A stretch of DNA of 64,000 nucleotides from a virus (IMGVR_UViG_3300023297_000003); one strand, 5' to 3'; shown: positions 5,481 to 30,061, counted from the first letter of the stretch. The notes: a model not told the origin generated them from the letters alone. Translations and numbers: made by a program.

Positions 5481-6244
5481 CCTTGTTGAGAGCTTTGTTT
5501 TTTCCGAGAGGACATCCGTTGCAGCCTTCGCAGGTCCGCAATGTCAATCTCATCCAGTAGCACCAGGGGAGCGTCCAGAAGCCCTTCCCTTACGATTTGT
5601 TTCAGCAAGGCCACCTTTTTTTCATCTCCAGGTCTTACCCTCTGTATTCGGTGTATCTCTAAATAAAACATCCCAAAGGGAGCCCAGACACGAAAATCCG
5701 GCAGGTATGTACGCCCCCCGACTAGTGTGAACCGCCTGGGCTCATACTGCCACTTCCAATACAGTGAGTCTAGCGTCTCGGCTCCTAGTTTTTCCCAAGA
5801 GGATCGGAATTTGTGCTTTACACCTTTTGGATCTGTGTAAACAGTCCAGTTGGGCCACTTAGGTTTCCGCCGTCTAGCTAAAATTTCCTTGCACCGATCT
5901 GAGCGAGCATAATCCTGTACTGCTTTTTTCCAGGAGTCTGTTGAGGTGATTCGTTTCATGTTTTTTGATCGGAGTTCTCGGTACTCTGGTGTTTGCATGG
6001 CCCTTTCATGGTTTGCTCGTTTTTCTGGATCCAGCCAGGATTTTTGTGTCCTTTTGCTTTGAGCCTTTCCGTAGGCATCGGACTTCCGATGTTCCTTTCC
6101 CCAGAGGGATCGTTTCCGACCCCCACCGAGACGGCCACAAACGGAACTACAATAGAGCCGGGTCGCAGGGCCTTTTGCTCTAGACGGAAGCACCCAGTAG
6201 GGTTCTCCACACTCAGCACACCACATTTGCACCTTTTTCTTCAC
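5477..6244 (-). CDS. Putative homing endonuclease (Zn finger + basic repeats + PD-(D/E)xK domain)
   Basis: CAECG, YCSSVC; RSSWE...WQYEP...YLPDF...YLEI; lower GC. Confidence 0.7.
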   Translation of the reverse strand: MKKKVQMWCAECGEPYWVLPSRAKGPATRLYCSSVCGRLGGGRKRSLWGKEHRKSDAYGKAQSKRTQKSWLDPEKRANHERAMQTPEYRELRSKNMKRITSTDSWKKAVQDYARSDRCKEILARRRKPKWPNWTVYTDPKGVKHKFRSSWEKLGAETLDSLYWKWQYEPRRFTLVGGRTYLPDFRVWAPFGMFYLEIHRIQRVRPGDEKKVALLKQIVREGLLDAPLVLLDEIDIADLRRLQRMSSRKKQSSQQG

Positions 6245-16251: not shown

Positions 16252-16277
16252 CTACTCCACCGAACGCAAGATGATCC
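16252..16277 (-). promoter_or_regulatory. GGATCATC-N12-GAGTAG promoter-like motif driving ncRNA array
   Basis: Motif with 12-nt spacer. Confidence 0.6.
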
Positions 16278-18384: not shown

Positions 18385-18411
18385 CTACTCTGTCAGGTCT
18401 GTCGATGATCC
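18385..18411 (-). promoter_or_regulatory. GGATCATC-N13-GAGTAG promoter-like motif
   Basis: Exact match. Confidence 0.7.
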
Positions 18412-18472: not shown

Positions 18473-19108
18473 AAGTTTGTCCCACCTTTCCTGAGCATCA
18501 GGACAGATTGTGACAGCGGATGTCAGGTGTGTAAGTTCCTCCCAATTCCAGACATAGCAAATGTCAGTGAACAGGTCGTAACCCACAAGGAAATCAAAGT
18601 CACCTTTCTGATAACGACCTCCAGTCCTACGCCCTCTTCCAAAATGAAGAGACACAGTGGACAGGCCGTGTCCCTTATTGGGCCTCCATGCGGTTTTGAC
18701 CTGTATTTTGTGTACCTGCCCCGTAGATGGGACCTCTACTAACCAGTCGGTCTTATCCCCATCAAAGACAGACCCGAAAGGATTGAAACCATGGATGAGG
18801 AGTCGTAACAGTACTGCTGTCTCTGAAACCTTAGCCACTTGGACTCCATTAAGCCCCTTACTTCTGACAAGGGAGTGAATCTCAGATTCGGTCCCTCGCT
18901 CCTTTTTTCTTCCCTTGTTCCAAGCTCCCGGATGTGCCCGTTTTAGGCACTCTCTCTTTTCCTCCGCTGTAAGAGGGTAACCCTTCAGCCAACTGGAGAG
19001 CGAACCTTTGCTGACCCCCAGTCTTTCCTGCAATTCCCGGTAAGAGAGTCTTTCCTCCACACGCAGTCTGATACACTCAACTTTCAACTCTGGTTTGGAT
19101 GCAGCCAT
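18464..19108 (-). CDS. HTH + PD-(D/E)xK homing endonuclease (I-Ssp6803I-like family)
   Basis: LSYRELQERLGVSKGSLSSWL; DWLV...KIQVKT...YQKGDFDF. Confidence 0.82.
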   Translation of the reverse strand: MAASKPELKVECIRLRVEERLSYRELQERLGVSKGSLSSWLKGYPLTAEEKRECLKRAHPGAWNKGRKKERGTESEIHSLVRSKGLNGVQVAKVSETAVLLRLLIHGFNPFGSVFDGDKTDWLVEVPSTGQVHKIQVKTAWRPNKGHGLSTVSLHFGRGRRTGGRYQKGDFDFLVGYDLFTDICYVWNWEELTHLTSAVTICPDAQERWDKLGG

Positions 19109-25982: not shown

Positions 25983-26399
25983 CTACTCCAAAGGCTCCTG
26001 GGGAGGAACATGCGATCTTGAGGGCTGCACCACAGACGCCCCGTTTGGAAAGAGGCGACCAGTCAATTTCATCAGGAGGTAGATCACAAAGGGCGACCCC
26101 CCGGATCCTGCAACACCCGCCAAGAGTCCGCCGCTCCAGTGCCAGAAAGCTGCACCGGCCAACGCCCCCAGGGCACCACAACAAGCGGCCAGGATGACGG
26201 CACCCCACAATTCCCACACCTTTGAGATGGCCTTGGCGTCCACCAGATAACGGATCCGCCTGGAAAACCCGAAGGTGATAATGGCTGCGCCACCTGCGAT
26301 CACTGAGGCGATGATGTGCCATGCTACATCGTTGGGGCACCAGGAGTGCCATTGCACCGGGTCAATGCCTGTGGGCACCTGTCCGAGGAGAAAGTCCAT
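25983..26399 (-). CDS. Membrane protein, possibly holin-like
   Basis: Three hydrophobic segments; AGGAGG RBS. Confidence 0.6.
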   Translation of the reverse strand: MDFLLGQVPTGIDPVQWHSWCPNDVAWHIIASVIAGGAAIITFGFSRRIRYLVDAKAISKVWELWGAVILAACCGALGALAGAAFWHWSGGLLAGVAGSGGSPFVIYLLMKLTGRLFPNGASVVQPSRSHVPPQEPLE

Positions 26400-26440
26400 C
26401 ACACACCTCCTAATGAAGGAAGGGTGATAGGGGGACTCTC

Positions 26441-26516
26441 GGCCCTCCCCGTGGGACTCGGACCCACCCCCTGGCCGCACGGACAACAGGAGCGATCCCT
26501 GGTTAGCTGGAGAGGA
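26441..26516 (-). ncRNA. tRNA-like RNA with 8-bp acceptor
   Basis: TCCTCTCC/GGGGAGGG; GTGGG-TCCGAGT-CCCAC. Confidence 0.45.
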
Positions 26517-26592
26517 TGGCGGGTACCGAGGGACTTGAACCCCCAGTCAACAGGTTAACGGCCTGCGGCTTTACCAATTAAGCTAGGTACCC
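26517..26592 (-). tRNA. tRNA-Asn(GTT), C33, G1:C72
   Basis: Loop CCGTTAA, G73, CCA. Confidence 0.88.
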
Positions 26593-26593
26593 G

Positions 26594-26670
26594 TGGGGTG
26601 TGCGACCGGGTTTGAACCGGCGACCTTCGAGACCACAACCCGATGCTCTGCCAACTGAGCTACGCACACC
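26594..26670 (-). tRNA. tRNA-His(GTG)
   Basis: G-1:C73, CCA. Confidence 0.93.
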
Positions 26671-26839
26671 ATAGACACGGAACGTTCCCTTCACGTACCG
26701 GCCCAAAGAACAGGGGTCAGGAGAACAGTTTCGTACCCCAGGCTTAACGTACCTGTTGTGAGGGAGGCATCCCAGGCCCAGTCCAACAACGCCAGGTCTG
26801 TGGTGGGGAACCTTTGACCTGTGGCGGGAGTGAGGGGAC

Positions 26840-27481
26840 TCAATCCGATCCACCCCCTGTTTTCAACTTGTCCCAACGTTCCTTGGCATCCTCAGTGGCG
26901 GACACTGAGGATGCCAAATGGGAAATCTCTTGCCATTTCCATACGTAGCATGTGTCGGTCTCGTAGTCGTACCCTACGAAGATGTCTAGCTCACCGTCTA
27001 AATAGGGTCGGACCTTTCGTCTTCCGTTTGAACATTGAAGTACGAACAGAGGGCTACCATATTCTCCTTTCTTGCTAGATTTGACCTGGACCCGCAGGGG
27101 TGTTCCGCCGGGAACATCAACCAACCAATCTGACTTGTCCCCATCAAACATTGATCCGAACGGACAAAACCCATGAAGAATCAGTCGGTATAGGGCCGCA
27201 GCCTCCGACAATTTGGCCTTCTGCAAACGGGTCAGCTTTTTCCAGGGGACTTTGATACAGAACTTGGAGAGTGGCTGGTCCTCACACTTCTTTCGTCTGC
27301 CGAGGGCTACGGAACTACGGTGACGTTCGAGGATCTCTTCCTTTGTCAAAGGGCAACCCCTGAGCATCATACTAGCTGTGCCCTTGGAAACATCTAACTC
27401 AGATGCAATCTCGTCTAAGGAGTACCGTTTTTCAGTCCTCAGACGAATGGCATCATCCTTGAGATGCTGTTTGCTCTGCAT
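26840..27481 (-). CDS. HTH + PD-(D/E)xK homing endonuclease, paralog of 18464-19108
   Basis: Shared HGF.PFGS.FDGDK.DWLV, QVK, VGYD, ERWDKL. Confidence 0.82.
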   Translation of the reverse strand: MQSKQHLKDDAIRLRTEKRYSLDEIASELDVSKGTASMMLRGCPLTKEEILERHRSSVALGRRKKCEDQPLSKFCIKVPWKKLTRLQKAKLSEAAALYRLILHGFCPFGSMFDGDKSDWLVDVPGGTPLRVQVKSSKKGEYGSPLFVLQCSNGRRKVRPYLDGELDIFVGYDYETDTCYVWKWQEISHLASSVSATEDAKERWDKLKTGGGSD

Positions 27482-27525
27482 TTGAACCTCCTACTGTGAC
27501 CATACTGCACATATAGAAGGTCTAT

Positions 27526-27586
27526 TGACGGGAACGACAAGGTATGATCCCGCAACCCCCGTTGCGCTACATTGCGCTACATCCCC
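27526..27586 (-). pseudogene. Degenerate tRNA lacking anticodon arm
   Basis: GGGGATGTAGCGCAATGTAGCGC...CGTTCCCGTCA. Confidence 0.5.
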
Positions 27587-27590
27587 GTAG

Positions 27591-27664
27591 AACAACCACC
27601 CGGAATCGAACCGGGATCCATCACCTTAAGTCAGGAGTGCTCTGCCAACTTGAGCTATGGCTGA
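27591..27664 (-). pseudogene. Degenerate tRNA (CTT-like loop, unpaired anticodon stem)
   Basis: Intact D and T arms. Confidence 0.6.
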
Positions 27665-27715
27665 TATTGAAAAAGAAACTCGACGGCAGGGTTGGGCACC
27701 CTCTGCCGTCGCTTG

Positions 27716-27736
27716 GTTATTCAGTTGTCAAAGATC
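27716..27736 (-). promoter_or_regulatory. rRNA-leader-type boxA element
   Basis: GATCTTTGACAACTGAATAAC immediately 5' of tRNA array. Confidence 0.55.
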
Positions 27737-27774
27737 CTCCCCCGTTTCCGAGGGACGGGCTTCGTGAAGCCCTT

Positions 27775-27816
27775 AAACGCCGAAAGCCGAACACCCTTTC
27801 GGGGTGTCCGGCTCTC
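27775..27816 (-). terminator. Attenuator terminator hairpin
   Basis: GAGAGCCGGACACCC-CGAAA-GGGTGTTCGGCTTTC-GGCGTTT. Confidence 0.6.
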
Positions 27817-27841
27817 AGTTACTTGCAGGTTTTACCTGAAG

Positions 27842-27997
27842 TTAGAGGCCGGGCACCCCCTTGGGATCGCCGCCCTTGTCATTCCCACGTACATGGGATG
27901 CGTCGGTCGGGATACCCATGGGCTGTCCGACAGACCGACACACGGCAGCGGCTCTCACCGCTGGGCGTTTGAATCGGTTTTGTTTCTGCCTGGACAT
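27842..27997 (-). CDS. Putative leader peptide (51 aa)
   Basis: Short ORF between promoter and terminator; its 3' end forms an alternative pairing. Confidence 0.5.
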   Translation of the reverse strand: MSRQKQNRFKRPAVRAAAVCRSVGQPMGIPTDASHVRGNDKGGDPKGVPGL

Positions 27998-28067
27998 GCC
28001 GTATAAATCCTCTGCATCCCTTCTCAAGGATGCTACTTCAGAGCCGAGGTTAGCCTCGACGTTTTTA

Positions 28068-28097
28068 TCTATACCGAAGCCGGGGCTTCCTTGTCAA
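28068..28097 (-). promoter_or_regulatory. sigma70-like promoter
   Basis: TTGACA-N18-TATAGA with upstream A tract. Confidence 0.55.
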
Positions 28098-28161
28098 CAC
28101 CTTTTTTCAATCCGCCCGAACTTTCTTCACTCGGCGCAGGCAACCTTGCTCTGCACAACGT

Positions 28162-28188
28162 CTACTCAGGGAGTTCCTGAGATGATCC
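28162..28188 (-). promoter_or_regulatory. GGATCATC-N13-GAGTAG promoter-like motif
   Basis: Exact match. Confidence 0.7.
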
Positions 28189-28195
28189 AACTGTC

Positions 28196-28453
28196 TCAAA
28201 ATAGATTCAGATAGTCCAGTTGAAAGGGTTCGCCCATGAGATGAAGGCCCGGAAGAAACACCGGCTCGGCGGCAGGAGGTTCCTCGGGTGGGGGGTCGTT
28301 TCGCAGGGCCGGACACAGTCGGTCAGGATCCATAAGGTGCAGCCACATCTGCCAGAGGGCCTCTTCACCACCCTCCTCGTAAACGTACAGCAACCAACCG
28401 ACCCGTGGGTCAGGAGGCACCGGGGGGCAAGACCACCTAGTCACCACTGACAT
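28196..28453 (-). CDS. Hypothetical protein
   Basis: ORF following upstream gene. Confidence 0.4.
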   Translation of the reverse strand: MSVVTRWSCPPVPPDPRVGWLLYVYEEGGEEALWQMWLHLMDPDRLCPALRNDPPPEEPPAAEPVFLPGLHLMGEPFQLDYLNLF

Positions 28454-28907
28454 CGGGCAACCCTGTGCTGCCGGTGATCCCTGTGGAGTCCCCGGTGATG
28501 TAGGACTCGATGACGAAGGACGCCGAGGTGAAGTCCTTGGGGAATAGCACACCCCTCTTCTTCTCTATCTCTCGGGACAGGGACCATGCGACAACTTTGC
28601 CCTTTTCCAGCAATGTCTGAAGGATGAGCCGCTTGTAGTATGAGTGATGATGTTCGACGGTCTCAGGGGCGGCAAAAGGCCGGGCTTTTTCCTGTCGCCC
28701 GAAGAAACGTCCTTTGTACTCCTCCAGTTTCGCCTGGAGTTGCCGGACCAGCTTCTTGTTCCGGCGGTCGAGCTTGATGACGGGGGACTCCAAGGGCATG
28801 GCCTTGCCCTCCATCATTACCTGACCGTCCTCCACCGTATAGGGTGTGCCCTGCTCCTTCAGGAGAGCGCACATCTCTTCGAGCGTGTATTTCAATTTCC
28901 GTCTCAT
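28437..28907 (-). CDS. Hypothetical protein
   Basis: AGGAG RBS, MRRKLKY... Confidence 0.65.
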   Translation of the reverse strand: MRRKLKYTLEEMCALLKEQGTPYTVEDGQVMMEGKAMPLESPVIKLDRRNKKLVRQLQAKLEEYKGRFFGRQEKARPFAAPETVEHHHSYYKRLILQTLLEKGKVVAWSLSREIEKKRGVLFPKDFTSASFVIESYITGDSTGITGSTGLPDVSGD

Positions 28908-29191
28908 AACGTGTCTCCTTCCTTGGGGGGATCCCAGGGGTCTGGTTCCATGACGTTGAGTCCCGTCATCCTCTCTACTCGTCTGAGGGTTCGAGGAGAT
29001 AATCCCCCGTGGTCGGGCACGCCGTGCCACCACCCCTCAAGCACCATTTCCGGGTCAGGGTCGGTGTTGGGGGAGAGCATCTTCAACCAACGGCAATAGG
29101 CGGTCGCCGCCAGATGCACGGCTTTCCTTGTAGGACCGAATACGAGACAACCCCCGAGGAGGAGCCACCGTTGACGGGGGGTGAAAGTCAC
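28904..29191 (-). CDS. Hypothetical protein
   Basis: Coupled ORF. Confidence 0.55.
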   Translation of the reverse strand: MTFTPRQRWLLLGGCLVFGPTRKAVHLAATAYCRWLKMLSPNTDPDPEMVLEGWWHGVPDHGGLSPRTLRRVERMTGLNVMEPDPWDPPKEGDTL

Positions 29192-29481
29192 TTGGTGTTT
29201 CCTCTCATCCCCGTCACAGGTGTCCCTTCCGGGGGTTTCTCACCGGGCGTACAGTACAGAACGGCCATGCCTGCCAGCCCATTCCTGTGACTTGCATTTC
29301 TGGTACACCACAAGATCCGGCACATCTGGGGCCAACCGCTTTCGGTCGAGGTGGCTTGATTGAACTCTACGCACGCCGTGGGTGGCGTTGCCGTAGCCGT
29401 ATCCTTCTTCTCGGGGGGCCTGTCCCCTTTACATCCGAGAAAAAATAAGGAGAGGGTCACCAGTACCAATGTTGTTTTCAT
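29188..29481 (-). CDS. Putative lipoprotein
   Basis: MKTTLVLVTLSLFFLGC lipobox. Confidence 0.7.
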   Translation of the reverse strand: MKTTLVLVTLSLFFLGCKGDRPPEKKDTATATPPTACVEFNQATSTESGWPQMCRILWCTRNASHRNGLAGMAVLYCTPGEKPPEGTPVTGMRGNTK

Positions 29482-29485
29482 CTCG

Positions 29486-30061
29486 TCACCTTTCCTGTGG
29501 TGGGTATAGCCCGTTCTGTTCAATGTATCTGAACACGTCGTAGGGCACCCGGCCCCGGACCATCTTTTCCCGGTGCTCCGGTTTAATCAATGCCAACGTC
29601 GTTCGGATTCCTGTGCTGGAGATGCCAGGGAGCTTGATTGGATCGGTGGCTGCAGCCCCCACGGCGTCGGGGGCACGCCCCAGGACATGGATCTCCGCCA
29701 ACTCCCGAACCACCTCTGGCTCCTTCCAGCGGTCGAGGGCATCTCTCTCGTCCTCGCCAATCACCAGCACGAACTCGTGGTGGGGGTGGGTCTCTTTGAG
29801 GAACCGCAGGAGGTCCACTGTGTACTTGGTCTTCAGTTCCTTCTCGAAGGTGGGCACCGTCACGAACTTGAAAATGCTGAAGGCACGGCGGCACATCTCC
29901 ACCCGAGTGTCAAAGTCCGTCATCTCCTTCCCGAAGGCATGTTTCCAGCAGGGGACAACCCACATTAGATCCACGTTTGCCGTGGCCATCACCTCGGTCA
30001 CAGCCAGGACGTGACTGATATGCGGGGGGTCGAAGGCACCACCGTAAATGCCGACCCTCAT
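29486..30061 (-). CDS. nadD: Nicotinate-nucleotide adenylyltransferase
   Basis: GIYGGAFDPPHISH, YTVDLL, VIGED, W, ISSTGIR. Confidence 0.9.
   Translation of the reverse strand: MRVGIYGGAFDPPHISHVLAVTEVMATANVDLMWVVPCWKHAFGKEMTDFDTRVEMCRRAFSIFKFVTVPTFEKELKTKYTVDLLRFLKETHPHHEFVLVIGEDERDALDRWKEPEVVRELAEIHVLGRAPDAVGAAATDPIKLPGISSTGIRTTLALIKPEHREKMVRGRVPYDVFRYIEQNGLYPPQER

Follow-up and report, generated by a model that had tools for sequence, protein, structure and literature searches.

A putative leader-peptide attenuator combined with an rRNA-type boxA at the head of tRNA genes in a huge salt-lake phage

Is the transcription of phage tRNA genes subject to regulation, and if so, what signal does it respond to? 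The question is raised by a stretch of 64,000 nucleotides (hereafter the window) that contains 26 tRNA genes, every one of them on the minus strand. The gene that comes first in transcription order (27663-27592) is preceded by a leader whose elements are all on the same strand. Leader-peptide attenuation is a textbook mechanism in amino-acid biosynthesis. An initial annotation of the window had proposed that attenuation of this kind, together with an rRNA-type boxA, controls the tRNA genes. We analyzed the leader and its relatives computationally, and the reading we favor, with moderate confidence, is that it acts as a ribosome-coupled transcription attenuator of the leader-peptide type, joined to an rRNA-type boxA and heading a mixed unit of tRNA genes and ORFs.

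The window belongs to a virus record, a contig of 188 kb with 55.8% GC (contig C1), and its source is a huge salt-lake phage. The protein encoded next to the leader was found on 22 contigs, the longest of 528 kb, and completeness estimates of the CheckV type imply genomes of about 500 kb for the relatives. Outside the window, the last 300 bases or so of the contig (about 187900-188175) form a CRISPR array with 36-nt repeats. Since the contig ends inside this array, it is incomplete there, and the phage appears to carry a CRISPR array of its own.

Promoters and layout of the leader

The elements of the leader are listed in Table 1. The 397-nt leader stretch as a whole folds with a z score of -7.3, and this structure is concentrated in domain I of the ORF, in the attenuator hairpin T1 (z = -7.5) and in a second, terminator-like hairpin, T2 (z = -4.6). 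The 5' UTR taken whole gave a z score of -2.6. A scan of positions 26000-30000 against Rfam with E values up to 1 returned only tRNAs and no T-box, riboswitch or known leader.

Table 1. Elements of the leader in transcription order, with window coordinates.
Feature	Position	Strand	Basis or remarks
Phage-specific promoter-like motif (9-mer, 12 nt, 6-mer)	28188-28162	-	38 strict copies in the contig
Sigma70-like promoter including A-rich tract	28110-28068	-	Read directly from the sequence
Two 5' UTR hairpins	28060-28043, 28033-28014	-	-10.9 and -12.4 kcal/mol
SD-like purine run	28013-28008	-	10-11 nt before the ATG
Leader ORF (protein P0003)	27997-27842	-	ATG, 51 codons and stop (27844-27842)
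Domain I, long irregular hairpin in the first half of the ORF	27996-27924	-	-33.8 kcal/mol, z = -4.4
Segment 1	27918-27905	-	Alternative pairings in RNAfold
Segment 2, 5' strand of the antiterminator	27860-27845	-	Last ORF codons, ends at the stop codon
Small hairpin after the ORF	27842-27821	-	
T1 attenuator hairpin (segments 3 and 4)	27818-27780	-	17 bp; degenerate U-tract 27779-27770
Two small hairpins between T1 and boxA	27772-27757, 27755-27738	-	Folding
rRNA-type boxA	27737-27718 (17-mer 27734-27718)	-	Sequence match
T2 hairpin, terminator-like	27711-27668 (hairpin 27711-27681)	-	11-bp GC-rich stem and 8 U in 9 bases
First tRNA, atypical, anticodon UAA	27663-27592	-	ARAGORN; starts 7 nt past the T2 U-tract

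Two promoter-like elements lie upstream of the ORF. The sigma70-like promoter named in the initial annotation is present, with a perfect -35 hexamer (28097-28092), an 18-nt spacer and an imperfect -10 element (28073-28068) that matches at 4 of 6 positions and misses the final T. A consensus promoter scan did not flag this site. The same -35 hexamer, together with an A-rich tract, precedes all three homologous leaders described below as well as the leader in the window. The other element, a phage-specific motif, had escaped the initial annotation and sits 70 nt upstream of the sigma70-like promoter; nearly all of its strict copies in the contig lie just 5' of genes or tRNAs.

Strict copies of the phage motif also occur inside the tRNA array, at window positions 18411, 16277, 11867 and 10388. 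The array is therefore not one operon, and direct control by the leader can reach no further than the block down to about position 18500. The motif stands directly before a tRNA-Lys gene (18368) and a small-RNA array at 16277, and many copies have a conserved 5' UTR hairpin and a strong SD behind them. Four contigs in IMG/VR (L234-L238) also carry the motif with its hairpin; on these four contigs, which are fragments amounting to 1-21% of a genome, neither the leader nor the boxA was found. A second class of promoter, with five near-identical copies at contig positions 97462, 121152, 132500, 168273 and 185991 (window 74488-74516 and beyond), is built from a -35 hexamer, a 17-nt spacer and a TAAAGT-type -10 element followed by a conserved hairpin. 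These copies look like host-type, possibly early, promoters.

Alternative pairings and their conservation in homologous leaders

The last codons of the ORF had been noted to complement the left arm of T1, and this complementarity is more than chance. The duplex between 27860-27845 and 27818-27801 (the 2:3 pairing) has a free energy of -28.8 kcal/mol, nearly as stable as the T1 stem with which it competes (-29.4 to -32.7 kcal/mol). Dinucleotide shuffling of the upstream 175 nt gave an energy this low in only 2 of 1000 cases and shuffling of the upstream 60 nt in 1 of 1000, and none of 269 genomic windows reached it. T1 itself, at -31.3 kcal/mol, begins 23 nt past the stop codon of the ORF. When the RNA was folded up to the left arm of T1 only, the minimum-energy structure contained the 2:3 pairing, that is, the antiterminator; when it was folded to the end of T1, the terminator was adopted.

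The pairing of segment 2 with an upstream strand was partly as proposed in the initial annotation. Segment 2 does have an upstream partner, in that RNAfold pairs 27917-27909 with 27859-27851 over 9 bp in the terminator state. The strand originally put forward for this role, 27875-27862, instead pairs with 27918-27905, and it does so in the antiterminator state. The description of T1 as a terminator likewise held for its 17-bp stem and for its counterparts in homologous leaders but not for its tail in the window. Because only 3 of the 8 bases that follow the stem are U, T1 fails the usual terminator rule, and it may terminate poorly here.

Relatives with the same leader were found by inspecting phage contigs that share the 17-mer of boxA. 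Comparison of the flanking proteins with IMG/VR gave no matches, and INPHARED gave nothing useful. A metagenome scan yielded one 2-kb contig of a close relative (L233), which keeps the upstream gene and the phage promoter; its sequence diverges completely right after that promoter and the leader is absent. Pattern scans for further homologues returned only the leaders of L065 and L010/L074. The comparison set consists of four leaders from three phages. The leader on L065, a 107-kb fragment, heads an array that starts with His, Asn, Thr and Pro tRNAs. Since this gene order matches that of the block in the window (a tRNA-Leu-like gene, an endonuclease ORF, His, Asn, Pro), we regard the L065 leader as the ortholog. 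The leader on L010/L074, a 260-kb contig, heads an array of 30 tRNAs. The fourth (L253, 3650-3392 on the minus strand, relative G005) is a paralogous leader that belongs to the second array of the L065 phage, with Leu, Ser, Phe, Tyr, Thr and Arg tRNAs followed by a boxA-like site and tmRNA. A boxA-like sequence also abuts the 5' end of the tmRNA gene on the contig of the window, at about 279-289 and outside the window, and on L250 of relative G005 at about 16803.

The three further leaders keep the whole architecture, so that the conservation in related phages called for by the attenuator proposal is observed. All four share the same order of elements, namely an A-rich tract with -35 hexamer, an SD, an ORF, a terminator, small hairpins, boxA, a second hairpin with a U-rich tail, and a tRNA or tRNA-like element. 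The ORFs are 51 (window), 52 (L065), 47 (L010) and 32 (L253) codons long. Despite their different sequences, in each of the four it is the ORF's 3' end that best complements the left arm of T1, and the 2:3 energies of L065, L010 and L253 are -20.0, -22.0 and -20.5 kcal/mol, respectively. The distance between the stop codon and the 3' end of segment 2 is 0-3 nt in every case, and the terminator follows the stop codon by 15-24 nt. The T1 tails of the three relatives are canonical, with U5-U6. Compared with L065, T1 of the window carries two changes that are compensatory and three that affect one side only; the two small hairpins between T1 and boxA have counterparts at this position in L065, and one of these shows a compensatory change.

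The leader ORF and its codons

The ORF lies downstream of the promoter as annotated, and its translation was assessed from several sides. The SD stands 10-11 nt from the ATG, compared with a mode of 5-8 nt for the genes of this phage; in the three homologous leaders the distance is 8-11 nt. The start codon is partly paired within domain I. The codon-usage score of the ORF (+6.2) falls at the 27th percentile of windows from real genes and was reached by 13% of spurious ORFs, which weakly favors coding (likelihood ratio of about 1.7). Given the base composition, the chance of an open frame is 29% for the window and 0.23-0.36 per leader across the leaders. From the window alone, the evidence for translation is weak.

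The relatives bear on the same issue. Every leader retains an open frame even though the central part of the ORF has diverged almost to randomness. On 21 contigs the ORF is predicted by gene callers. Identity between the orthologous peptides is just 24-25%, all of it in the C-terminal Asp-Pro and Pro-Gly residues, which overlap segment 2. A search of 5.8 billion clusters detected no homologue of the leader peptide outside this small clade.

We also looked for natural variants and transcripts of the leader. None of 24 salt-lake runs included an RNA run containing the locus. In four runs, contigs spanning the leader do not differ from the window and therefore offer no natural variation; beyond these, only two short fragments, both from a relative, touch the leader. 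On a relative's short contig (run X17), an inner hairpin of the ORF is swapped for a shorter one without introducing a stop, and the frame is kept because the difference in length is 15 nt. A variant peptide, P0006, has the same length with 9 residue substitutions, and a search for it among genome contigs gave no match. Another variant, P0004, which corresponds to the L065 peptide and is encoded on an ENA contig of 1907 nt, has lost the stop codon; its frame is 12 codons longer and ends inside the left arm of T1. This loss is either a caution against the attenuator model or a natural constitutive variant.

If the leader were read by ribosomes as a measure of tRNA supply, its codons might be expected to reflect the tRNAs encoded downstream. 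A null drawn from gene windows of the phage overstated the codon match, and we replaced it with stop-free dinucleotide shuffles. For the leader in the window, array tRNAs cover 39 of 50 codons and 45 of 50 residues (gene windows, P = 0.012 and 0.0055; shuffles, P = 0.065 and 0.0175), and among the six frames that of the ORF has the highest array coverage. The array tRNAs of L065 cover 44 of 51 leader codons (gene windows, P = 0.07; shuffles, P = 0.094) and those of L010 cover 40 of 46 (P = 0.13 and 0.065, respectively). The match is strongest for L253, where 20 of 31 codons are covered against a gene background of 28%, a level attained in 0 of 1253 gene windows and with P = 0.0005 by shuffles. 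The ORF of L253 is composed mostly of Thr, Leu, Ser, Phe, Arg and Tyr codons, which are read by the tRNAs of its own array; the window-type leader is depleted in most of these six amino acids. The codon match is convincing for the clade and only suggestive for the leader in the window, where it becomes marginal under control for base composition and where the test has little power because the array covers 14 amino acids.

The amino acids that the array does not supply give a similar picture. Residues from the six amino acids without an array tRNA account for 5 of 50 in the window leader, against a background of 26% (P about 0.005-0.0075); relative to a composition-matched null, the depletion is only at P of about 0.02-0.07. 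Glu is absent from the window leader and Thr occurs in it once, and the window array has tRNAs for neither; in L065, the leader contains three Glu and three Thr, and both tRNAs are present in the array. The leader had been described as a general sensor of tRNA depletion. With its depletion in amino acids absent from the array, that description is too broad.

These results can be set against an alternative in which the terminator/antiterminator switch exists but responds to a factor other than the ribosome (for instance a phage or host RNA-binding protein, uncharged tRNA or a small ligand acting on the structured domains I and II), with the ORF being incidental. The RNA of the ORF region is indeed unusually structured (z = -3.2, with domain I at -4.4, compared with a mean of -0.4 in coding controls), and a long hairpin of different sequence is kept at the position of domain I in L065 and L010. 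The atypical SD spacing and the replacement of the inner hairpin by another hairpin in a relative would also fit such a factor. The in-frame length of that same replacement points the other way, as do the strong codon match of L253 and the SD, ATG, open frame and stop codon tied to segment 2 in all four leaders; moreover, no Rfam family, the T-box included, matches the region. We consider a switch set by a non-ribosomal factor unlikely. In the ribosome-coupled reading that we prefer, domain I is a candidate pause or synchronizing hairpin.

BoxA, the proposed control and known systems

The boxA 17-mer occurs once in the genome, downstream of the promoter and 54 nt before the first tRNA. Its designation as rRNA-type is well founded, since the identical 17-mer was found at no fewer than 120 bacterial loci from many phyla, including rrn leaders and spacers, with a G at position -2 in 110 of 118, as in the window. 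With simple landmarks used for positioning, 43 of these copies could be placed before 16S or 23S genes: 8 are located 89-257 nt upstream of the 16S start and 35 in the 16S-23S spacer. The 17-mer is also present in L065 and L010/L074 and differs by one change in L253. It was found on more than 112 contigs in IMG/VR, 13 of which have a tRNA less than 300 nt downstream on the same strand. When 97 distinct IMG/VR loci carrying the 17-mer were crudely screened, 21 had a terminator-like site upstream, and only L065 had an SD-preceded ORF ending before such a site. The attenuator module thus does not generally accompany this 17-mer.

An exact boxA would also fit a constitutive leader resembling that of an rRNA operon, with boxA and Nus factors protecting the tRNA transcript from Rho and the hairpins serving in processing or stability rather than attenuation. 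The hairpins beside boxA recall boxB and boxC of rrn leaders, the U-tract of T1 in the window is poor, and T2, just 5' of the first tRNA, is at a possible position for a processing stem. We nevertheless regard a purely constitutive leader as quite improbable: the 2:3 alternative stands out statistically and has been conserved while its sequence covaried, the T1 hairpins of the homologues have canonical U-tracts, and the conserved ORF and the position of its stop codon would be left unexplained.

T2, which the initial annotation had missed, lies between boxA and the first tRNA and has the canonical form of a terminator (-21.4 kcal/mol); all four leaders have a hairpin with a U-rich tail after boxA. 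We considered T2 as part of a second switch and rejected this, as it has no significant upstream partner (289 of 500 shuffles were equal or better). A strong terminator-like hairpin that lacks an alternative fold is left unexplained by a simple attenuator model. T2 could be either a checkpoint passed only by a modified polymerase or a stem for processing or stability.

A canonical terminator-like site before the tRNAs would also suit an independent small unit, either a gene for a 51-residue protein or a non-coding RNA of about 400 nt, ended by T1 or T2, with the tRNAs transcribed from other promoters. Phage motifs do directly drive other tRNAs, for example at window position 18411, and the ORF is one that gene callers predict. 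We find such a unit very unlikely. The 7 nt between T2 and the first tRNA contain no promoter motif, the leaders of the relatives always head an array, boxA makes sense only with continued transcription, and the low identity of the orthologous peptides is limited to the C-terminal residues over segment 2.

The first tRNA is called as Leu without a long variable arm, and its Rfam tRNA score is 32.7 bits. A weaker tRNA-like match (27529-27586, 24.6 bits) follows it. At the same place before tRNA-His, L065 has a cloverleaf-like element without a normal anticodon loop (about 5545-5632). Between the first tRNA and tRNA-His of the window there is an ORF (26840-27481, minus strand) encoding 213 residues, whose product contains a helix-turn-helix and a PD-(D/E)XK endonuclease domain (Pfam PF11645, E = 2.6e-8). 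Both this ORF and the tRNA-Leu-like gene are missing from the orthologous L065 array, and the ORF is for that reason probably a homing-endonuclease insertion.

We propose the following sequence of events for the ribosome-coupled attenuator. Host RNA polymerase would initiate from the sigma70-like promoter, and perhaps from the upstream phage motif as well, and a ribosome would translate the 51-codon ORF. A ribosome that keeps up with the polymerase would reach the stop codon and cover segment 2, allowing segments 3 and 4 to fold as T1, so that transcription would be stopped or reduced. A ribosome lagging or stalled at about codons 23-41 would instead mask segment 1 and leave segment 2 free to pair with segment 3 before segment 4 is made, and the polymerase would read on. 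Readthrough would also be favored if the ribosome were absent, with 27875-27862 pairing with segment 1. Because a ribosome at the stop codon would mask segment 2 and a stalled one would free it, the device would report fast and complete translation as a state of sufficient tRNA. At boxA, host Nus factors would then render the polymerase resistant to termination, enabling it to pass T2 and the long untranslated tRNA stretch. In rRNA operons, the Nus complex protects long untranslated transcripts from Rho, and rrn-type Nus complexes are known to suppress mainly Rho-dependent rather than intrinsic termination, which speaks against this reading.

The proposal that stalling in the leader switches on the tRNA genes is thus strengthened by the architecture of the three further leaders and weakened by the lack of a good U-tract at T1 in the window. 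Since the relatives keep the same layout, tRNA output is probably tied to decoding by the ribosome. More tentatively, the phages of this clade may each have two arrays, each gated by a leader ORF written in the codons of its own array, such that the phage would measure tRNA shortage half of the genetic code at a time and top up only the set that is limiting, with boxA and the second terminator as a checkpoint that admits only Nus-modified polymerase.

In full-text searches, we found no account of leader-peptide or attenuator control of tRNA genes, either phage or cellular. The application of a known mechanism, leader-peptide attenuation, to tRNA genes is probably new. The parts are known, while their arrangement as an attenuator, an rRNA-type boxA and a downstream terminator is undescribed. 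If the model is true, phage tRNA arrays would be under feedback control by decoding speed rather than constitutive, which would be relevant to the question why the tRNA sets of huge phages are nearly complete and to the ways in which these phages withstand host defenses that cleave or deplete tRNAs. The promoter, ORF, switch and boxA would also constitute a compact, transplantable module.

Among known systems, the leader most resembles the attenuators of amino-acid operons. As in the trpL, hisL and multivalent ilvGMEDA and thr leaders of enterobacteria, there is a short ORF with an SD. Pairings 1:2, 2:3 and 3:4 that exclude one another, a stop codon whose position would let a terminating ribosome cover segment 2, and a terminator-like hairpin 15-24 nt after the stop are likewise shared. 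The composition of the leader also seems to follow the products of the operon. The phage leader differs in that it would regulate tRNAs and not biosynthetic enzymes. It has no run of identical codons and instead includes about 13 amino acids roughly once each, and it has an extra segment, 27875-27862, that would favor the antiterminator without a ribosome. Its ORF is also long (51 codons) and highly structured, and it is followed by boxA and a second terminator-like hairpin.

The boxA region in turn resembles the leader site of rRNA operons (boxB-boxA-boxC, with NusB/NusE, NusA, NusG and SuhB), whose role in antitermination has been reviewed (PMC4807359, PMC12360218). The phage boxA is identical to that of many rrn leaders and spacers and is likewise situated between a promoter with a strong-looking -35 element and stable RNA genes, with small hairpins adjacent. 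Unlike the rrn site, it heads tRNAs only and is placed after an ORF and attenuator and before a hairpin resembling an intrinsic terminator. The nut sites of lambdoid phages (boxA, boxB and the N protein) offer a further parallel, with boxA, a short spacer and a hairpin upstream of terminators, but the hairpin here is much larger and has a U-tract, and the boxA is of the rrn rather than the lambda type. Finally, T-box riboswitches share with the proposed device a switch between terminator and antiterminator that reports on tRNA status. The leader has no Rfam T-box match, specifier loop or T-box bulge, and sensing here would proceed through the ribosome.
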